Below, in pieces: positions 6,878 through 18,510 of a stretch of DNA of 64,000 nt. The first letter of the stretch is position 1. Every line of letters starts with the position of its first letter. Both the position numbers and the translations under genes were made by a program. This DNA comes from Candidatus Poribacteria bacterium (GTDB lineage: Bacteria; Poribacteria; WGA-4E; PCPOR2b). Under the pieces are notes generated by a model that did not search any database, had not been told where the DNA came from, and saw nothing but the letters and a program-made list of their open reading frames with translations. The DNA lies in assembly GCA_965116925.1 (NCBI GenBank), contig OZ220744.1, positions 1,824,001-1,888,000 of the forward strand, given 5' to 3'.

Positions 6878-8140
6878 TTATTTTCTTGATGTAGCCGTAT
6901 CAAGGGTTTGTTGAATATCGTCGGCATTGATGTTTTTACCGAACATCGCAGAAACTAATCGGTTTTCCATTAAAGCCCGTAGATACCGCACCATCAACCC
7001 GCGTGTCAACTTAGCGGGTCGATACCAATCAATGCCCAATGTCTGAGTTACCTGCTCGATGGTTACCGGCGTGTCAGTATGGGAAGTGACAGCGAATAAC
7101 AGTTGGGTCATGCAACTGGCTATGAAACTGAGTTGGACAAACCGATTGATACTTTTTCGACACTTGACCCGATAGGTGTCAAATCCGAAGTGTTGCTTGG
7201 TGTCCCGAAAGGCGGTCTCAATCAACCATCTCTTTTGGTAGTATCGCACAATCTGCGGTAAATCTAGGGTTAAGTCAGTGGTAAAGACACAGAAGTATCG
7301 AAACGGCTTACGCCTTTTGTCACGCGTTCGCATCACCACGACACGAACGGGTTGTGGACACATTTTGGTTCGGGCGACTATACTTGCTATGGCATACTGT
7401 TTGTCGTCAATGTCAGTCGTTTTATACCGCAGATACGGCAGATGAATCCGTTTGCCGTATCTCTTAGGTCTGCCGGGTTTGGATTGCTTGGCAGCGGTAG
7501 GTAACCGATAGAACACTGCATTCGACTTGGCACGACACAACAGGTGATGTCCCGCTTTAAGGACACAGCCAAACACTTTCTGTCGAGCGAATCCCCGGTC
7601 AAAGATAATCAGTCCCGCAGGGAGGCGGCTGCACATCCGTTTGAGGACTGACTCACTAGTGTCGCGCTTTGTCTGTGGACACATCAACTTGACAAACACC
7701 GGAAACAGTATCGTCTCGTGGACGGTGCTACAAAGTAATCCCAATGCACCAAACTGATGACCATGGTGAAACTTCGATTGATTCGTGTTGCGTGTGTGAT
7801 AGCGATGGTTCCTGAAAAAATGAAGTCCAAATTGTGTCTCGCCGGTCTTTCGTGCGTGCGTCTCATCGTAAACGTAGACCCAGTTATCGAAACACCTCTG
7901 TAACAACTTCAGCAGATGGTGACCGACTCTATCGGCGTCCCACTTGCCACGCGAAAGGAACTTCACCAGCGAGTGGTAACCCGTTTTCGGACGAACCGCT
8001 TGATAAATGCCGGTCAGCGTCGCACCTTCGCGCTGTGTGATAAGTCCCACAACAAAGACACAAAACAGATGAAAGTTTTGAGACTTGAATAACGGACGAA
8101 AATCGGTTAAAATAGCATTCAGGCAGAATATGAGGTACAT
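6878..8140 (-). CDS. DDE transposase (IS4 superfamily, IS701/ISH3-like)
   Basis: YVYDET, IIFDRGF and YQKRWLIETAFRDTK (Y-x2-R-x3-E-x6-K signature). ATG at 8140 follows AAGGAG. Confidence 0.92.
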   Translation of the reverse strand: MYLIFCLNAILTDFRPLFKSQNFHLFCVFVVGLITQREGATLTGIYQAVRPKTGYHSLVKFLSRGKWDADRVGHHLLKLLQRCFDNWVYVYDETHARKTGETQFGLHFFRNHRYHTRNTNQSKFHHGHQFGALGLLCSTVHETILFPVFVKLMCPQTKRDTSESVLKRMCSRLPAGLIIFDRGFARQKVFGCVLKAGHHLLCRAKSNAVFYRLPTAAKQSKPGRPKRYGKRIHLPYLRYKTTDIDDKQYAIASIVARTKMCPQPVRVVVMRTRDKRRKPFRYFCVFTTDLTLDLPQIVRYYQKRWLIETAFRDTKQHFGFDTYRVKCRKSINRFVQLSFIASCMTQLLFAVTSHTDTPVTIEQVTQTLGIDWYRPAKLTRGLMVRYLRALMENRLVSAMFGKNINADDIQQTLDTATSRK

Positions 8141-8222
8141 AACTTCTCCTTTCAAAATTGTGATGGATTTCTGAAAGGATAACCTCTTTTCTGCCTTTTT
8201 GCATTAAAATTGTACTAACTTT

Positions 8223-8407
8223 AACGCAAGTTGCTAGTTATATGCGAGGCAGTAAAAGGCGACTCCCAATATCCGTAGGTCGGGCATCTTGCCCGACTCA
8301 TAGCCCCAGCGGGGCGACATGTGTATAGAAAACAGGATAAAACCAGCCTTAAAGCCCCAGCGGGGCGACATGTATGTGGTATCGTAACACAACTAGCAAC
8401 TTAGGTT
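8223..8407. mobile_element. MITE-like element with AACCTAAGTTGCTAGTT-type TIRs and a 6-bp target duplication
   Basis: Ends AACGCAAGTTGCTAGTT and AACTAGCAACTTAGGTT, flanked by AACTTT at 8217-8222 and 8408-8413. The same terminus recurs at ~42060 and ~57555-57590. Confidence 0.7.
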
Positions 8408-8681
8408 AACTTTAGTATAATTAAGGGTAATTCATAAATAATCTTAACAAATTTTAGTTCACTATAGTTTCCATTGTAACCCCCCAAATCGCAAACCCAG
8501 AAGCTAGAAAATCCTGCGACATAACTCACCCTGAATCCCCAAGGGTCCCCTTTTTCATCAAGCTGTAATTATTTTGAACACGAACTTTTTTTTGCGCCAG
8601 AAATCGTTTTCAACCTTTATCAATCCCTCCTGTCGTCTGGTTTTCTAACAATTTTAAGCCTATACTTGCTTCGCCGCTTCC

Positions 8682-8729
8682 TTGAATTCCATCCTTTCAT
8701 ATGTTATTATTTCTTATAGAAAATAATAA
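8682..8729 (+). promoter_or_regulatory. Promoter of the marR operon with an AT-rich palindrome over the -10
   Basis: TTGAAT (8682-8687), 17 nt, TATTAT (8705-8710) with an upstream TG. Imperfect palindrome TTATTATTTCT-TAT-AGAAAATAATAA at 8704-8729. Confidence 0.55.
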
Positions 8730-8848
8730 GCACGCCGTTACTTGCTATACTCCGGTTAGAAAGAACTCACTAAATTTACATCAATTTGGTTGCCGCCGGC
8801 GAACAGGAGAATCTTGGAACGGTAAAGAGTTAGCAAGGAGATATTTAT

Positions 8849-9364
8849 ATGACTCATGAGCATCAAGAGACGCACGATGCTGTACTCATTTCTTTGAGAC
8901 GCATCATCCGCGCGATTGATCTCCGCTCAAAGAACCTCGCGCAACATCACGGACTCACCGTGCCACAACTGGTTGTTCTTCAAGAGGTTAACCGATCAGG
9001 AGAGATACCAGCCGGTCAGTTGGCGAAGAACGTTAGCCTCAGCAACGCAACCGTCACAGGAATTCTCGACCGGCTTGCAAAGCGCGAACTGGTGGACAGA
9101 AGGCGTAGCGGTAATGATAAACGCCGCGTGCTCGTAAAACTCACCAGGAAAGGGACAGAGATGCTTTCCAAGGCACCTTTGTTACTTCAAGACCGTTTTG
9201 TGTCCGAATTCAGCAAACTTGCCGATTGGGAACAAAACCTAATTCTCTCGTCGCTGCAAAGAGTCGCTCACATGATGGAAGCAAAAGACCTTGATGCGGC
9301 GCCTCTGCTTGTCAGTGGAGAGATTTCCGGAACAACCGAAGCCCAAAAGGATCTACTACTATAA
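8849..9364 (+). CDS. MarR-family transcriptional regulator, EctR-like
   Basis: LRRIIRAIDLRSK..HGLTVPQLVVL, SLSNATVTGILDRL, DKRRVLVKLT and WEQNLILSSLQRVAHMM.A.DLDAAP, resembling ectoine-operon regulators. Confidence 0.85.
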   Translation: MTHEHQETHDAVLISLRRIIRAIDLRSKNLAQHHGLTVPQLVVLQEVNRSGEIPAGQLAKNVSLSNATVTGILDRLAKRELVDRRRSGNDKRRVLVKLTRKGTEMLSKAPLLLQDRFVSEFSKLADWEQNLILSSLQRVAHMMEAKDLDAAPLLVSGEISGTTEAQKDLLL

Positions 9365-9426
9365 TTCAAAGTCCGCTAGTTCCTATACGAAAATCGATGC
9401 AAACTATTCATGCCAAGGAGGTAAAA

Positions 9427-10695
9427 ATGGACGATAAAGAAGCTCAGTTCACTTACAAGGCGGCAGTCGCTGATGGATTCTATCAGCGTAATATCGGGGG
9501 ACTGACGGGCAAGTACGACAACGTGCGTCGTTATTGGGAAGACCAGATTACCCGCTATGTTCTGCACGATTTCATTGAGGGATTTGTCAATGAGAAACGG
9601 CAGCTACTCACCCGTATCCGCGTGCTCGATCTCGGCTGCGGCGCGGGGGAAGGCTACGAGATTTTGACGAATCCGAGCCAGAGGACGCTCTGTCTGGCAA
9701 CCAAAGAGGTCGATGTAATGCCCGCCGAGATGTTGGACTGCTACAAGGGGATTGATATCAGCGAGGCAATGGTCGAGCAAGGGCGTAAGACATACAATGA
9801 TAGTCCTAAAATGACGTTTGAGATCGGGGATCTCAGCCAAGGGCTTTCGACAGCGACGGATGATCCCCCTTATGATATTTACTTTTCGTCCTACGGTTCT
9901 CTCGCTCACCTCAAAGACGACGACTTTCGGCGATTGGTAAAAGAGATTTGCAACCATTTTCAGGACAGATGCGTTTTTGTCGCTGACATGCTTGGGCGTT
10001 ATTCCTATGAATGGCAGTGTTATTGGGATGAACAAGGCTCAGACGAAACCAACATGCGGCAGTATTCGATGTCCTACCTCTATCCACCGGAGATAATCGA
10101 TCAGATTGAGGTCGAACGGTTCCCGATGCGCTATTGGGGCGGGAAAGAGTTTGACGAGGCCATGTCAGAGATCGCTGTTGAAGCAGGTGTTGAGATTACT
10201 CGACGAACACTTAACGATCGTTCCATCATCGTCGGGCGACACATGGACACCGCAGAATACAATCCCTACGCTCAACCGCTTCGTGATGTAGTGAATCAAT
10301 TACACGAATTCAACTATCGAACCGACCTGCAAGGACTGATATTCGATTATTCACCGCTCCCCGACCATCCAGAACTAAACACCTTTTTCGAGCAGTTTCA
10401 AATGGCGTGGAACGCTGTTGTCTATGCGTGCATTGAAGCCCTGGAATATGGGGAAAATGGTGACTGGCAACCGCCAGAGATTCCAGCCGAATATCCCGAT
10501 GTTCTTACCGAGGCGATTCATACGATTCGGGATGTCATACGGAATCTAAAATGGTTCCGCATGGGCGACCCACTTGCAAACATCGTTGAACCACAGCTTG
10601 GGTATATTCTTCGTAATCTGGAGCAAGGTCTTCAAAGCGGACTCGGTGCCGGGCATGGATTGCTTGCGGTGTATGAACTCTCGAAGGAGAAATAG
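9427..10695 (+). CDS. Class I SAM-dependent methyltransferase, substrate unknown
   Basis: RVLDLGCGAG motif I and GIDISEAMV motif II. ATG at 9427 follows AAGGAGGT. Confidence 0.85.
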   Translation: MDDKEAQFTYKAAVADGFYQRNIGGLTGKYDNVRRYWEDQITRYVLHDFIEGFVNEKRQLLTRIRVLDLGCGAGEGYEILTNPSQRTLCLATKEVDVMPAEMLDCYKGIDISEAMVEQGRKTYNDSPKMTFEIGDLSQGLSTATDDPPYDIYFSSYGSLAHLKDDDFRRLVKEICNHFQDRCVFVADMLGRYSYEWQCYWDEQGSDETNMRQYSMSYLYPPEIIDQIEVERFPMRYWGGKEFDEAMSEIAVEAGVEITRRTLNDRSIIVGRHMDTAEYNPYAQPLRDVVNQLHEFNYRTDLQGLIFDYSPLPDHPELNTFFEQFQMAWNAVVYACIEALEYGENGDWQPPEIPAEYPDVLTEAIHTIRDVIRNLKWFRMGDPLANIVEPQLGYILRNLEQGLQSGLGAGHGLLAVYELSKEK

Positions 10696-10700
10696 ATCCG

Positions 10701-11678
10701 ATGATTGTGCTTCGAGACTTGAGCAAATCTTTCGATGGCAGGACGACGTTTGCTGTCCACAATCTCTCGCTAGAGGTGCAGGAGGGAGAAACGCTTGTAC
10801 TGCTCGGATCTTCAGGCTGTGGCAAGACCACGACGCTGAAAATGATCAATCGCCTCATCGAACCGACTTCGGGAGAAATCGAGGTCGATGGTGTCAATGT
10901 GCTCCAGAAGGACGTGGTTGAATTGCGTCGTTCAATCGGTTACGTATTTCAGAGCATCGGTCTCTTTCCACACATGACGATTGAGGAAAACGTGACAATC
11001 GTCCCACGACTGCTCGGTTGGTCTGAGGAACAAAAGCAGAACCGAGCCAAAGAACTGCTTGCGCTTGTCCAACTCGATCCTGACCAATATGCGTCTCGCT
11101 ATCCGCATGAACTTTCAGGTGGTCAACAGCAGCGCGTCGGCGTCGCACGGGCACTCGCCGCCGATCCGGATTACCTACTGATGGACGAGCCCTTCGGTGC
11201 ACTCGACCCAATTACCCGCGAGGCGGTTCAGGAGGAGTTTGCCCAACTCGAAGCAATAATTCAGAAAACGATCGTGTTCGTCACCCATGACGTGTTTGAA
11301 GCTGTAACGCTCGGTGACCGTATTGCCATCATGGAAGCGGGCGAAATCGTCCAACTCGGAACGCCAACGGAGTTACTGACACAACCGGCGAATGTTTTCG
11401 TCAGCAACTTTTTCAGCAAACACCACTTCCAATTGCAGTTCAATGCCCTGTCTGTTGGAGACTTTATCCGTCTTGATGCCGGCGTACAGACGGCTGTCGA
11501 TTCGACGGCAGTCTCCGTATCCCCAATGGAAAATCTCGGTGGTGCGGTGGATTTGATGCGAAAACACCAGCTTTCAGAGTTGCCCGTTGTGGATGGTCAA
11601 GTTGTTGGTGTATTACGCAGTACTGACTTGGTGGAGGCACTTGTCGGGAAACGGAATCAATCATACGGTCGAGAATAA
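10701..11678 (+). CDS. Osmoprotectant ABC transporter ATPase with CBS domain (OpuCA/OsmV-like)
   Basis: GSSGCGKTTTLKMINRLIEPT, LSGGQQQRVGVARALA, DEPFGALDPITR, and a C-terminal CBS-like segment. Confidence 0.92.
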   Translation: MIVLRDLSKSFDGRTTFAVHNLSLEVQEGETLVLLGSSGCGKTTTLKMINRLIEPTSGEIEVDGVNVLQKDVVELRRSIGYVFQSIGLFPHMTIEENVTIVPRLLGWSEEQKQNRAKELLALVQLDPDQYASRYPHELSGGQQQRVGVARALAADPDYLLMDEPFGALDPITREAVQEEFAQLEAIIQKTIVFVTHDVFEAVTLGDRIAIMEAGEIVQLGTPTELLTQPANVFVSNFFSKHHFQLQFNALSVGDFIRLDAGVQTAVDSTAVSVSPMENLGGAVDLMRKHQLSELPVVDGQVVGVLRSTDLVEALVGKRNQSYGRE

Positions 11679-11683
11679 TCATA

Positions 11684-12319
11684 ATGAGGTCATTTGTCAA
11701 TTTTCTCCAAGAACGTGGTAACGAAATTCTATCGTTGACAGTTGAGCACTTGTATCTCACCGGAATCACGATGGTATTCGCGATTATCGTCGGTGTATTA
11801 TTGGGCCTCCTTCTGACGCGGTTTGAATGGCTTGCGACGCCGATTCTCGGCGGGGCAAACGTCATTCAAACCGTGCCAAGCCTCGCTATTTTGGGGTTTA
11901 TGATTCCCCTGTTTGGGATCGGCGCGACACCGGCAATTGTAGCGCTCTTTCTGTACGCGCTGCTGCCAATTATTCGGAACACCTACACCGGCATTGTTGG
12001 CGTTAATCCGGCAACCGTCGAAGCCGCCCTTGGTGTGGGCATGACGCAACGACAGGTGCTGAGGTTGGTCAGATTGCCGCTGGCACTCTCCGTTATTATG
12101 GCGGGGATTCGCACCTCAACAGTCATTTGCGTCGGCATCGCTACTCTCTGTGCCTTTATTGGCGCAGGGGGTTTAGGTGAGTTAATCTTCAGCGGGATTT
12201 CAATGGTAAACGCAAGCATGATTCTCGCGGGAGCGATTCCTTCGGCGTTGCTAGCGTTGATTTTGGATTTTGGGTTAGGATTGATTGAGAAACTGCTCAC
12301 ACCAAAGGGACTTAGGTGA
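11684..12319 (+). CDS. Osmoprotectant ABC transporter permease (OpuCB-like)
   Basis: QTVPSLAILG, LYALLPIIRNTYTGI, EAALGVGMT, IGAGGLGELI. Confidence 0.92.
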   Translation: MRSFVNFLQERGNEILSLTVEHLYLTGITMVFAIIVGVLLGLLLTRFEWLATPILGGANVIQTVPSLAILGFMIPLFGIGATPAIVALFLYALLPIIRNTYTGIVGVNPATVEAALGVGMTQRQVLRLVRLPLALSVIMAGIRTSTVICVGIATLCAFIGAGGLGELIFSGISMVNASMILAGAIPSALLALILDFGLGLIEKLLTPKGLR

Positions 12320-12458
12320 AATGATTGGCACTGTTGTGGTGCCATCATCGAACACCTCCGTCCTGATAGGAAAGGGGCGCCATCCTCTCAAATTGTTCAA
12401 CAGTCCTCAAATCGAGATGCGATTTGAGAGGGGAGTAGATAAACGGGAGGGACTTTAG

Positions 12459-13343
12459 ATGTTAAAACAGAGGCTAACTATTTTCATCCTAATTGCACTA
12501 TTCGGTATCACTGCTTGTGGTGATGGCGAAAAGAAAGTCGTTATCGGCTCAAAAGAATTCACAGAATCAGTGATTTTACGCGAGATGATGGCGGCGTTAA
12601 TCGAAGCCAACAGCGACATCAAAGTCGAGCAGAAATTCCTCGGCGGTACGCTAATCTGTTTCAATTCGCTCACGAGTGGTGACATCGATCTTTACGCAGA
12701 ATATACCGGAACAGCGTTGATGGCGATTCTGAAGCAAGCACCGATGACCGACTCACAGAGAGTCTACGATACAGTTAAGGAGAACTTCAAAAATCTGTAT
12801 CAGCTTGAGTGGCTGGCACCTTTCGGTTTCAACAACACTTATGTCTTGACAATGCGAAAAGATCATGCTCAAGCACTCGGCGTTGAAAAAATCTCCGATT
12901 TGGACACCCATCTTGATACCCTGAAAGCCGGTTTTACGCATGAGTTTTTGGAACGCCCGGACGGTTATCCCGGTTTGACGGAGCACTACGGTCTAAAATC
13001 GACACAGAAGCCGAAAGGGATGGACCCCGGCTTGATGTACAAAGCCATCGCCGAAAAACAAATCGATCTAACCTCTGGGTTTGCGACGGATGGGCGCATT
13101 CCCGCCTTCGATCTCGTGATGCTTTCTGACGACGAGGGGTTCTTTCCGCCCTACTACGCTGCTCCCGTCGTGCGGTCAGATACTTTGGGTAAATATCCTG
13201 AACTTAAGGGCATTTTGGGCAAACTCGCGGAGAGAATCGATGATGCAACGATGGCGCAACTCAACTATGAAGTTGATGAAAAAGAACGGGCTGCCGCCGA
13301 AGTTGCGAAGGATTTTCTGCAAAAACAAGGACTAATTCCATAG
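12459..13343 (+). CDS. Glycine betaine/choline/carnitine-type substrate-binding lipoprotein (OpuCC-like)
   Basis: Lipobox ITAC, IGSKEFTES, YAEYTGT, FGFNNTY, TDGRI, FFPPY. Confidence 0.92.
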   Translation: MLKQRLTIFILIALFGITACGDGEKKVVIGSKEFTESVILREMMAALIEANSDIKVEQKFLGGTLICFNSLTSGDIDLYAEYTGTALMAILKQAPMTDSQRVYDTVKENFKNLYQLEWLAPFGFNNTYVLTMRKDHAQALGVEKISDLDTHLDTLKAGFTHEFLERPDGYPGLTEHYGLKSTQKPKGMDPGLMYKAIAEKQIDLTSGFATDGRIPAFDLVMLSDDEGFFPPYYAAPVVRSDTLGKYPELKGILGKLAERIDDATMAQLNYEVDEKERAAAEVAKDFLQKQGLIP

Positions 13344-13357
13344 GAGGAAAATCAACG

Positions 13358-14872
13358 ATGTGTGGAATTGCAGGAATCTGGGGGATGGAGGATGTCACGC
13401 TAGTGAAAGAAATGAACGAGAAGCTGTCCCATCGCGGGCCGGACGCTGAGGGGTTGTATCGCTGCCCACACGGACACGGTACCCTCGGACATCGAAGACT
13501 TTCAATTATGGATCCTGAAGGTGGGAATCAACCGCTGTATAACGAGGAAAAATCCAAAGCCATTGTCGCAAACGGTGAAATCTACAATTTCCCGGTGTTG
13601 CGGAAGCAGTTAGCGGAAGCCCATACCCTTCACACAGGCAATGACAGCGAAGCCATTCTGCACCTGTACGAAGACCATGAGCAGACCGTCGTTGATCACC
13701 TTGAGGGTATGTTTGCTTTTGCTATCGCCGATGGTGAAAACTTATTCGCTGCACGCGACCCTATCGGTATCAAACCACTGTACTATGGTCAAAAGGAAGG
13801 GGCGTTCTACTTTAGCTCGGAATTGAAGGCGTTCCCCAAGCAGATGGAAGCGGTCAATGAATTTCCGCCGGGGACGTGGTATCACTCCGACAAAGGTTTC
13901 GTGTCTTTCTATGAGATTCCCAATCACCGTCCACTAGAAGTACCGCTTGCTCTTTGTCTTTCTGCCTTGCGAGAGAAGCTTGAAAAATCGGTGACCAAAC
14001 GCTTGATGAGCGACGTGCCGCTAGGGACTTTCCTTTCAGGTGGGCTTGATAGCAGCATCATCGCCGCAATCGTCCGACAGCACATGGACGAACTGCACTC
14101 TTTCTCAGTCGGTATTGAGGGAAGTCGTGATTTAGAAGCAGCGCGCATGGTCGCTCGACATCTGGACACTGTCCACCATGAGTACATCTTCACCCCCAAA
14201 GAAGTTCTAGAAATCCTTCCTGACGTGATTTATTATCTTGAATCGTTCGATCAAGATCTGGTGCGGAGCGCGATTCCCTGCTATTTCGTCTCCCGGTTGG
14301 CGAGCGAAAAAGTGAAGGTCATCCTGACAGGGGAGGGTGCCGACGAACTTTTCGCTGGCTACACCTATTACAAGAACATTTTTGACAACGAAACGTTACA
14401 TCGCGAATTACGCCGATCTGTAGCGGCACTACATAACATCAACCTTCAGCGCGTCGATCGGTTGACGATGGCGCACGGACTCGAAGGGCGTGTGCCGTTT
14501 CTTGATCTGGAAATGATTAATCTCTCGCAGACCGTTCCACCTTCGCTCAAATTGTACGATGATGGAAAGGGACGACGAATTGAAAAATGGATTTTGCGAA
14601 AGGCGACAGAAGATCTGTTGCCTAAAGAGATTGTTTGGAGAGACAAAGCGCAGTTTGACGAGGGCAGCGGCACAGTTGATCTCCTGCAAAGCGCAATTGC
14701 CGAGAAAATGACATCTGAAGAAGCGGACGAATACCGTTCGGCACATCCAGAAATCCGTCTGCGGTCGCCAGAGGAATGCTTTTACCATCGAATTTTCACT
14801 GACGCCTTTGAGTGTCCAAAGCTAATTAGCCAAAATGTCGGACGGTGGGGAGAGCGTCCTGCGTTTGAATAA
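13358..14872 (+). CDS. asnB: Asparagine synthetase B-like glutamine amidotransferase
   Basis: MCGI (Ntn Cys2), HRGPD, ANGEIYN, LSGGLDSS, GEGADELFAGY, GRVPFLD. Confidence 0.85.
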   Translation: MCGIAGIWGMEDVTLVKEMNEKLSHRGPDAEGLYRCPHGHGTLGHRRLSIMDPEGGNQPLYNEEKSKAIVANGEIYNFPVLRKQLAEAHTLHTGNDSEAILHLYEDHEQTVVDHLEGMFAFAIADGENLFAARDPIGIKPLYYGQKEGAFYFSSELKAFPKQMEAVNEFPPGTWYHSDKGFVSFYEIPNHRPLEVPLALCLSALREKLEKSVTKRLMSDVPLGTFLSGGLDSSIIAAIVRQHMDELHSFSVGIEGSRDLEAARMVARHLDTVHHEYIFTPKEVLEILPDVIYYLESFDQDLVRSAIPCYFVSRLASEKVKVILTGEGADELFAGYTYYKNIFDNETLHRELRRSVAALHNINLQRVDRLTMAHGLEGRVPFLDLEMINLSQTVPPSLKLYDDGKGRRIEKWILRKATEDLLPKEIVWRDKAQFDEGSGTVDLLQSAIAEKMTSEEADEYRSAHPEIRLRSPEECFYHRIFTDAFECPKLISQNVGRWGERPAFE

Positions 14873-15025: not shown

Positions 15026-16042
15026 ATGAATGCCGCATTACTTCCATTCCATTACACCCACTCACCAACGCTACCCAAACTGCTCTGGGAATTGCGGTGT
15101 ACGCTGGTGTTCAGCACCTACCAAGCGGGCAAGGTTATCTTTATCCGCGCCACCAGCCCGGAGACGATTGAGCAGCGCGCCCTGGACTTTCCCAGACCGA
15201 TGGGATTGGCGGTCTCCGATCAGCGGATCGCAGTCGCTACGCGGGAGGAGGTGGTGGTGCTTACCAATACTTCGGCAGAAGGCTCCACTGAGTCCCTGCA
15301 TGTTGATTCCGGATCTGTGATTAGAGCGGCAGCACACTCCTATGTGCAGGAGAAGACGTACTTTAGCGGAGAGGTTGACACTCATGACCTCGCTTGGGGA
15401 AAGGATGGACTGTGGGCAATCAACACCCTCCTTTCATCCGTAGCTTTGACAGACGAAAAATCTGATTTCGAGGCAGAATGGCGTCCTCCGTTCGTCAGTG
15501 ACGTAGTGCCAGAAGACCGCTGTCATTTGAACAGTATGGCGATGGTGGACGGTCAACCTGAGTATGTGACGGCATTTGGGAAGGTGAACACCTTTGAGGG
15601 TTGGCGCGAGAACAAGGTATCAGGCGGGATTTTGATGGATGTTCCCAGCGGAGAGATTGTATTGGAAGGATTACCGATGCCACACTCCCCACGGGTGTAC
15701 GATGGGAAACTCTATCTGCTGCTCTCCGCGACTGGGGAGTTAGTGTGTGCCGAACCCGAAACGGGGGGGTACGAAGCGGTTGCTCAGTTGCCCGGCTTTG
15801 TGCGTGGAATGGCACGTTGTGGTGATTATCTGTTTGTGGGATTGTCAAAGCTGCGAAAGACAAGCTCGACCTTCGCAGCGCTGCCAATCTCCGAGCAAGC
15901 GGCGTTCAGCGGCATTGTAGTCGTGTCTCTATCCGAAGGACGTATCGTTGAGCACCTCAGATATGAGACAGGTGTTGAGGAGATTTATGATGTGCAGGTT
16001 TTGACGGAGGGGTCAGCCAGTGACACTGTTCCTCCGTCGTAA
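15026..16042 (+). CDS. TIGR03032-family (DUF4915) beta-propeller protein
   Basis: FSTYQAGK, FPRPMGL, WRPPFVS..PEDRCHLN, MPHSPR, LPGFVRGM, EEIYDV. Confidence 0.85.
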   Translation: MNAALLPFHYTHSPTLPKLLWELRCTLVFSTYQAGKVIFIRATSPETIEQRALDFPRPMGLAVSDQRIAVATREEVVVLTNTSAEGSTESLHVDSGSVIRAAAHSYVQEKTYFSGEVDTHDLAWGKDGLWAINTLLSSVALTDEKSDFEAEWRPPFVSDVVPEDRCHLNSMAMVDGQPEYVTAFGKVNTFEGWRENKVSGGILMDVPSGEIVLEGLPMPHSPRVYDGKLYLLLSATGELVCAEPETGGYEAVAQLPGFVRGMARCGDYLFVGLSKLRKTSSTFAALPISEQAAFSGIVVVSLSEGRIVEHLRYETGVEEIYDVQVLTEGSASDTVPPS

Positions 16043-17684: not shown

Positions 17685-18510
17685 TTATTGTGAGACGTAC
17701 CGACTATACCAGTCGAGTATCGCCACCAGATACATAAACCCGTTGCTCATCAGGATATAAGTAATGTCAGCCGACCAAACCTCATTGGCAGCGGTCACCT
17801 CATAATCCCGTAATAGGTACGGGTAAACCCGATGCTCACTGTCAATGGCTGAGCGTTTCGGTTTGGGATAAATTGCTTCTATCCCCATCAAACGCATCAG
17901 TCGTTGGATACGTTTGCAATTCACACGATAGCCAAGCTGCTTGAGATGTTCTGTCATTCGACGACTCCCATAGAAGGGGGTTTGCGTATACTGCTGATCT
18001 ATTAGCCTCATCAGATGCAGATTCTCTACTGACTCTGTAGCCGGTTGACAGTAGAGGATCGACCGGGAAAAACCGAGCAACTCACACTGACGACGAATAC
18101 TCAATTGGGGGTGGTCGGGTTCAACGAGTTTACATCTCTGTTCAACCGCTTGAGGCAGCTTTTTTTTCAACCAATCCAATTCCATATTCAGCCGACCGAT
18201 TTGCTCATACAGACTGGACTCTCTGTCATTTTGCTCACGCTGTCGCTTGGTGGGGGTAGTCGCGAAAATATCGCTCCCCTGTCGAAGCAACTGTTTCTTC
18301 CATTGGCTGATTTGACTGGGATGCAACTGGTGCTCACTTGCCAATTGGTTGATAGTTTTATCCGACTTGATAGCTTCGATGGCTATTTGAAACTTGAACT
18401 TCGCTGTATGACGAATCCGTTGGGTTGACATATTCAGACCTCCATGTCTGGCTGTCAGTTAGACGGTAAATCTTACTTAACTCATGGCCCGAATATTGGG
18501 GTCCATTATA
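17685..18510 (-). mobile_element. Truncated IS3-family element (transposase ORF 17685-18431)
   Basis: OrfA HTH (FKFQIAIEAI...HPSQISQWKKQ) and OrfB SIRRQCELL, PFYGSRRM, WSADITY...ILDWYSR, then a stop before the remaining DDE residues. Candidate left end TATAATGGACCCC at 18510. Confidence 0.85.

Follow-up and report, generated by a model that had tools for sequence, protein, structure and literature searches.

A methyltransferase–amidotransferase cassette of a Candidatus Poribacteria bacterium as a candidate pathway for an N-methylated amino-acid osmolyte

Introduction

Several described systems resemble, each in part, the one presented here. In the pathway of N-acetylglutaminylglutamine amide (NAGGN), the charge of a glutamate-based osmolyte is removed through amidation by an AsnB-like enzyme. 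The repeated N-methylation of an amino acid is represented by GSMT/SDMT from Methanohalophilus portucalensis (PDB 5GWX/5H02), which synthesize glycine betaine. The nearest described case, compared by description only, is Tery_2447 from Trichodesmium, for which we know of no amidotransferase partner. The available passages of PMC5864184 present Tery_2447 as a single methyltransferase of a marine cyanobacterium that trimethylates an amino acid to homoserine betaine, a compatible solute, and it is annotated there as 'Methyltransferase type 11', with a length above 705 bp (PMC5864184, PMC4143802 supplements). Regarding regulation, EctR is described as a repressor in excerpts of bioRxiv 10.1101/845297, and those of PMC5924519 have it repressing synthesis genes, binding over the -10 element and controlling its own expression in M. 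alcaliphilum. Here we describe a six-gene cassette at positions 8682 to 14872 of a stretch of 64,000 nucleotides (the window; contig OZ220744.1, positions 1,824,001 to 1,888,000) from a Candidatus Poribacteria bacterium. It encodes a MarR-type regulator, an S-adenosylmethionine (SAM)-dependent methyltransferase of an unnamed family (MT in the following), an importer of the ATP-binding cassette (ABC) type, and an AsnB-like amidotransferase of the N-terminal nucleophile (Ntn) type.

The pairing of this MT with AsnB-like proteins is a real, mobile and widespread module. Judging from sequences and gene neighbourhoods, the product of the module is probably some N-methylated amino-acid osmolyte. In the open-access literature searched, no description of this gene set was found, in line with the initial annotation, which knew of no such pathway; within that literature, the enzyme module is undescribed.

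Linkage of the methyltransferase across bacteria

The neighbourhoods of 84 MT-bearing loci were compared, many of them on short contigs, with AsnB counted within ~7 kb of the MT. An AsnB-like protein is encoded near the MT in 36 of the 84 loci, and a ProA and/or a protein resembling glutamate–cysteine ligase (GCL) in 13, the two kinds of partner never appearing together (0/84). When the MT is clustered at 90% (63 loci), AsnB accompanies it in 29, ProA/GCL-like in 10, both in 0 and neither in 24, and the 16 loci in which each flank of the MT extends over at least 4.5 kb divide into 10 with AsnB, two with ProA plus the GCL-like protein and four with neither. Whole-genome searches in three phyla found the MT in 10 of 301, 7 of 135 and 5 of 168 genomes. 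Seven of these 22 genomes have AsnB adjacent, eight ProA plus the GCL-like protein, and six neither in the stretch read, one fragment being left out of the tally. A similar AsnB occurs in 34 of the 301 genomes of one phylum, mostly not linked to the MT. Finally, AsnB and MT are fused in three proteins, which group together on the MT tree and may represent one or two events. Synteny between methyltransferase and amidotransferase across phyla, a check that the initial annotation had suggested, is thus conserved (36/84 loci plus the three fusions). Its proposal of a methylated and amidated solute holds in part: the two genes are linked, but amidation is not obligatory, since ProA/GCL-like replaces AsnB in 13/84 loci.

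Other genes recur around the MT. A betaine-type permease or binding protein is found in 28/84 loci, and MttB or corrinoid genes in 31/84. The SAM-cycle neighbours comprise MetK, an archaeal-type SAM synthetase, AhcY and a homocysteine methyltransferase–MTHFR fusion, and the presence of SAM synthetase and AhcY points to a high methyl flux, that is, to bulk methylation. One locus carries MscS and a Na+/H+ antiporter near the MT, and sodium symporters are also among the neighbours. Several cyanobacterial loci hold MT and AsnB with no importer in view, and a double glutaminase stands beside the MT in five loci.

The double glutaminase is in tandem arrangement at L027:3725-5842, L049:3888-5867, L051:8542-10509 and L052:4731-6761, spread over two separate cyanobacterial MT clades; where E. 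coli GlsA has E161, its N-domain carries Lys or Arg, and the DYIP loop of its C-domain is altered. In L057, L063, L067, L069, L075 and L078, two MttB, a corrinoid protein, a pterin-binding methyltransferase and a MetH-type reactivation domain are encoded upstream of the MT; such an MttB/corrinoid module could serve either to strip the product of methyl groups or to feed in methyl groups from folate. In the Mastigocoleus-like loci L033:5451-9291 and L046 no AsnB is in view, and the MT precedes DHQ-synthase and O-methyltransferase genes in a mycosporine-cluster-like arrangement.

Alternative partners of the methyltransferase

On the MT tree (FastTree, 69 rows, with 16 near-duplicate loci and copies below 380 aa left out), ProA plus GCL-like partners occupy at least five places, three of them nested in a well-supported AsnB-/MttB-linked clade. 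Between AsnB-linked (n=33) and ProA-linked (n=13) MTs, four alignment columns differ by majority, none of them in conserved motifs, and the binding-protein motifs are alike in both kinds of loci. This intermixing of partner types, with the motifs of MT and binding protein unchanged, suggests that the MT would catalyze one reaction served by two interchangeable partner modules.

The GCL-like family is present in 4 of 301 genomes, every time beside the MT. Its nearest solved relative is plant GCL (E 5e-21), and its ExE motif reads ExK in 8/8 sequences. The ProAs of these clusters, compared with three housekeeping ProAs, are altered beside the catalytic cysteine, with N244D in 8/9 and ASTRF changed to ASTMF/STMY in 9/9. 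Both alterations are as expected for a substrate that has already been modified, given the roles that we assume for the substituted residues. Three genomes have no other ProA than that of the cluster, and a ProB was not found in them; in a fourth, both a ProB and a further ProA lie elsewhere. By family, both modules activate a side-chain carboxylate, AsnB by way of an adenylate and GCL by way of an acyl phosphate, and since ProA, GCL and glutaminase all act on the side chain of glutamate, a glutamate skeleton is indicated.

The methyltransferase family

The MT family comprises at least 1051 homologues at 90% clustering. Pfam returns a weak match to Methyltransf_25 (PF13649), and the DLGCGAG motif is that of the class I Rossmann SAM-binding fold. 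The motif GLTGKYDNVRRYWED, which had been noticed before motif I of this protein, is indeed there and occurs family-wide. In the predicted structure (mean pLDDT, a per-residue confidence measure, of 87), ~230 of the 422 residues match class I Rossmann methyltransferases at 13-18% identity, with Z scores of 14-18 (top Z 18.1; GSMT Z 15.3). No solved relative was found by sequence, GSMT chains being absent among the 2 phmmer matches and the 36 profile matches at E<=1; together with the 13-14% identity in the structural alignment, this agrees with the earlier impression that the MT is unlike a glycine/sarcosine methyltransferase. Repeated N-methylation of an amino acid is nevertheless likely common to the MT and GSMT/SDMT, with which it shares the class I SAM-dependent fold as well as SAM-cycle and ProX-type neighbours. 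It differs from them by ~170 extra residues, by being one enzyme instead of two and by its side-chain-modifying partner. The top Foldseek match, a weak one, is the proline N-methyltransferase CcbJ. Assigning the substrate of the MT by sequence or fold search was dropped, as neither names one.

Carriers of the MT include Coleofasciculus, Oxynema, Rivularia, Calothrix, Mastigocoleus, Crocosphaera, Fervidibacter, planctomycetes and myxobacteria; cultured strains among them are Coleofasciculus chthonoplastes PCC 7420, Oxynema aestuarii AP17 and Mastigocoleus testarum BC008. Two Streptomyces plasmids (L091:9962-12801 and L092:9917-12758) encode distant homologues (28%), probably of another pathway; behind them come two hypothetical genes and then LysE and HAD. 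P0221 is a 597-aa homologue with an N-terminal domain that, by eye, resembles a universal stress protein.

The AsnB-like amidotransferase

The AsnB-like protein scores 589 bits against NF006949 (cut-off 499) and also passes the cut-off of TIGR01536, whereas against the NAGGN amidotransferase model TIGR03104 it reaches 283.5 bits, below the cut-off of 570.1. Its identity is 38% to E. coli AsnB (PDB 1CT9) and ~30% to the NAGGN amidotransferase. With the former it shares the two-domain Ntn architecture, Cys1, the SGGLDSS PP-loop and the GEGxDE acidic cluster. Being above the asnB cut-off and nearer to E. coli AsnB than to the NAGGN enzyme, it may possess true asparagine synthetase activity. It departs from E. 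coli AsnB in reading D/L at T322/T323 and N at D384, in falling into a separate clade, and in belonging to a family adjacent or fused to the MT. Asp-400, the human equivalent of D384 by alignment, lines the modelled amino-group pocket in the passages available from PMC6748925, and Asn at this position would by itself suit a substrate that is already methylated.

The phylogeny of AsnB was approached with a quick tree of 44 rows, from which fragments below 440 aa, four near-duplicates, one frameshifted copy, one non-AsnB protein, the host's second AsnB-like protein and all but one of 13 further unlinked AsnBs were left out. The cassette AsnB lies in a 15-row clade with a support of 99, in which 14 rows are MT-linked and the last one sits at a contig end. 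The AsnBs of E. coli, Bacteroides and a lactobacillus form a clade of their own, and NggA, of the NggA/AsnO type that works with the Ngg acetyltransferase, is far away. Among the MT-linked AsnBs, those of L075, L078, L082, L083 and L056 have Ala or Ser in place of Cys1, and this loss makes it likely that they use free ammonia or another amine.

Organization, regulator and importer of the cassette

The features of the cassette are collected in Table 1. The initial description of six co-oriented genes with gaps of 5-139 nt is confirmed on the + strand, the gaps from marR to the AsnB-like gene being 62, 5, 5, 139 and 14 nt. The MT starts at the ATG at 9427, behind a strong ribosome-binding site; an upstream ATG at 9397 would extend it to 432 aa.

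Table 1. Coordinates (in the window) and supporting evidence for the features of the cassette
Feature	Positions	Strand	Evidence
Sigma-70-like promoter candidate, TTGAAT-17-TATTAT, extended -10	8682..8710	+	consensus scan
AT-rich palindrome over the -10, candidate MarR operator	8704..8729	.	22/26 self-complementary
marR, EctR/CosR-like MarR regulator, 171 aa	8849..9364	+	PF01047
MT, class I SAM-dependent methyltransferase, unnamed ~420-aa family, 422 aa	9427..10695	+	PF13649, model
ProV/OpuCA-type ABC ATPase with CBS domain	10701..11678	+	TIGR01186, PF00571
ABC permease, betaine/choline type	11684..12319	+	PF00528; best NCBIfam choW/proW, below cut-off
ProX/OpuCC-type substrate-binding protein	12459..13343	+	PF04069
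AsnB-like Ntn amidotransferase, 504 aa, Cys2 intact	13358..14872	+	NF006949

The palindrome noticed over the -10 was recovered with the self-complementarity given in Table 1, a score reached by 5 of 500 shuffles of 8400-8848 and by 1 of 500 shuffles of 8650-8848. The host genome contains 344 equally self-complementary 26-mers, four of them as AT-rich; the palindrome is real and uncommon. It is not recognizable in 13 other upstream regions, where the best candidates reach 12-17/26. The promoter candidate matches 9 of 12 consensus positions, and the number of such sites (9, versus 6.7 +/- 2.3 in shuffles) is not above chance. A single promoter and a single transcript would serve the six genes. 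Seven RNA runs contain the stretch and four were aligned; their contigs also span the flanks and the transposase, and one has the same length as a DNA contig.

The best plasmid relatives of the MarR protein are 42-49% identical to it, and it belongs to the same MarR subfamily as the regulators of ectR-ectABC-ask clusters and Vibrio CosR (42-49%). In both annotated matches examined (2/2), the related MarR gene, 42-44% identical, is oriented divergently to ectABC-ask; a third record carries no annotation. The designation as EctR-like therefore stands as far as these ect-cluster relatives go, but the regulator is an accessory of the module, found near the MT in 4/84 loci only. The regulator gene is divergent in the ect clusters, whereas the marR of the cassette is co-oriented with its operon, with no ect genes among the six.

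The assignment of the importer to the Opu type is supported by the ATPase, which scores 352 bits against TIGR01186 (cut-off 326.6), and by a binding protein of the ProX/OpuC type, OpuAC-like by Pfam, whose solved relatives are ProX, OpuCC, EgtUC and OpuBC-derived sensors. Its K32, Y82 and T85 align with Archaeoglobus fulgidus ProX, and its Y128, R166, Y194 and F208 presumably match further ProX motif positions, as in the aromatic cage of such importers. As this family is broad in its ligands, a betaine-like ligand is indicated, not which one.

Next to the cassette, an IS701-family transposase (6878-8155, - strand; NF049999 above cut-off) lies directly upstream and a transposase-like open reading frame, judged by eye, at 17685-18431. 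A TIGR03032/DUF4915 gene (15026-16042, + strand), 153 nt past asnB, was seen in 0/84 related loci.

Host genome and mobility

The MT was not found in the 60 relatives searched, 19 of them of the same genus. The AsnB-like protein has no full-length match in 30 relatives, of which 10 give partial matches (~E 1e-21) to a different, 680-aa family. With both missing from its relatives, the cassette was probably acquired sideways. The host genome lacks asparaginyl-tRNA synthetase (AsnRS) and has GatB, so free asparagine would not be needed for translation, and this, together with the MT in 0/60 relatives, makes a housekeeping role unlikely. The AsnRS argument counts against housekeeping, not against asparagine as the substrate of the MT.

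A search for MttB in the host gave no match at E 1e-15. A search of the genome for ectC came out empty, but control genomes gave no match either. As in the initial annotation, no NAGGN acetyltransferase was found: the acetyltransferase-ligase model TIGR03103 reaches 31.7 bits against a cut-off of 569, though no control genome passed the cut-off either.

The host has a second EctR-like MarR, 60% identical (C1:110515-111006), a second betaine-type ABC system (C1:881917-884183), and metK and ahcY side by side at C1:1812692-1815117, ~18 kb upstream of the cassette and outside the window. The stretch is present in sponge metagenomes. A close strain (runs X5/X9) has a 17-nt deletion in the MT at window position 10194 and loose contig ends between marR and MT, at 9376-9380; both suggest decay of the cassette in this strain.

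Proposed pathway and alternative explanations

The pathway that we prefer, tentatively and without holding it to be probable, would start with the MT adding three methyl groups from SAM to glutamate to give glutamate betaine. Next, the AsnB-like enzyme would convert the side-chain carboxylate into an amide, and the neutral glutamine betaine so formed, an osmo- or stress-protectant, would be recaptured by the importer; the EctR-like MarR would repress the cassette through the palindrome. Where the other module is present, this carboxylate would instead be phosphorylated by the GCL-like protein and then reduced by the altered ProA, so that the charge would be lost with no extra nitrogen spent. 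A quaternary amine is favoured by the ProX-type binding proteins and the MttB/corrinoid neighbours, and an osmotic context by the EctR-like MarR and by the locus with MscS and the Na+/H+ antiporter. The cyanobacteria among the carriers, such as Coleofasciculus, Rivularia, Calothrix and Oxynema, also fit, as glutamate betaine has been reported as a solute of cyanobacteria (PMC4390839, PMC7824335). That the MT methylates nitrogen and does so three times, that glutamate is the skeleton, in which order the steps follow, which ligand is bound and how the genes are regulated are all read from such context.

A number of observations weigh against this pathway. The AsnB-like protein passes the cut-off for asparagine synthase B and keeps GEGxDE. 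All of the unlinked AsnBs compared (8/8) likewise lack both D384 and the TT motif, and for that reason the pocket changes were rejected as proof of a new substrate. A tree check proposed earlier did separate the cassette AsnB from E. coli-type AsnB and NggA, but the MT-linked AsnBs are not one clade, canonical AsnB nesting among them with a support of 90-94 on the quick tree. N-methyltransferases are not set apart by the fold search, in which GSMT ranks level with many O-, C- and RNA methyltransferases. The change from Glu to Lys in the GCL-like protein and the glutaminase N-domain, given the roles assumed for these residues, fits a lost free amino group but, taken by itself, not a trimethylammonium group. 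The two modules would end in different products, one an amide and the other with its side chain reduced, and identical binding-protein motifs are awkward with this. Neither partner is seen in the four of 16 loci with long flanks mentioned above, carriers such as Fervidibacter, an inhabitant of hot springs, do not point to salt alone, and the 17-nt deletion indicates that the cassette can be lost. The RNA-run contigs, covering flanks and transposase and in one case equalling a DNA contig in length, are no evidence of transcription.

In one alternative, which we regard as unlikely, the partners act upstream: a true asparagine synthetase would feed an MT making asparagine betaine, and ProA plus the GCL-like protein would supply proline or a reduced C5 amino acid, in which case the MT family could be akin to the homoserine-betaine methyltransferase of Trichodesmium. 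The asnB equivalog score, the grouping at depth with ordinary-looking AsnBs, the cluster ProA as the only ProA in three genomes with no ProB found, and the weak first place of CcbJ would all suit this explanation, as would the absence of AsnRS, since the host may lack an asparagine pool and AsnB would then be carried along with the MT. Set against it are the motifs of the MT, the same in AsnB- and ProA-linked copies even though asparagine and proline differ greatly, the altered pockets of the cluster ProA and GCL-like protein, and the lack of a ProC homologue among the recurring annotated neighbours. Trimethylated aspartate and asparagine, moreover, readily eliminate trimethylamine. Among 30 clusters looked up, no Trichodesmium name appeared.

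We also consider improbable that the same logic applies to another skeleton, the product being an N- or S-methylated osmolyte, for instance one built on beta-glutamate, an amino acid with one or two methyl groups, or a compound methylated on the amide nitrogen. All context evidence fits it equally, and the Glu-to-Lys exchanges in two partner families might reflect an alpha-amino group that is missing or placed differently; nevertheless, the families of ProA, GCL and glutaminase work on alpha-glutamate, and ProX-type binding proteins together with MttB homologues favour fully methylated onium compounds.

Quite improbable is that an imported environmental betaine would be modified, by O-methylation and amidation, for storage or, in anaerobes, before demethylation by MttB. 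Sponges are a betaine-rich setting, which with the occurrence of the stretch in sponge metagenomes would accord with uptake, as would the MttB/corrinoid genes in 31/84 loci and the best structural match of the MT, a generic class I enzyme rather than an N-methyltransferase. However, SAM synthetase and AhcY neighbours imply bulk methylation, several cyanobacterial MT plus AsnB loci have no importer in view, the host has no MttB match, and EctR-type regulators repress synthesis genes in the passages available from PMC5924519.

That a housekeeping asnB simply lies beside an unrelated methyltransferase and importer is very improbable and already largely refuted. The equivalog score and the mostly unlinked AsnBs of 34/301 genomes would suit it, but the linkage in 36/84 loci, the three fusions, the missing full-length AsnB in 30 relatives and the missing AsnRS speak against it.

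Implications

Compatible solutes are bulk metabolites and account for a large share of the methylated nitrogen traded by marine microbes. Mackay et al. are said to have reported glutamate betaine from Calothrix in 1984. The available passages of PMC4390839, PMC7824335 and PMC9144741 name it as a cyanobacterial solute and give no gene, and glutamine betaine is listed as a compound, at m/z 189.124, in a table of PMC12706699. The cassette offers a two-enzyme candidate for glutamate betaine, a cyanobacterial solute with no gene named in those passages. If the proposed pathway is true, it would hint at what unassigned MttB demethylases act on and would give functions to the unnamed MT family, the GCL-like family and the ProA subfamily. 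A broader and more doubtful proposal is that the MT family is the missing glutamate-betaine synthase, anchoring a modular pathway over many phyla with two interchangeable neutralizing routes, either amidation to glutamine betaine by a recruited AsnB or phosphorylation and reduction by a ligase that has become a kinase together with an altered ProA; dedicated glutaminases and MttB demethylases would recycle the betaine. If so, a class of osmolytes and methyl-group carriers of marine and saline settings would have been overlooked.

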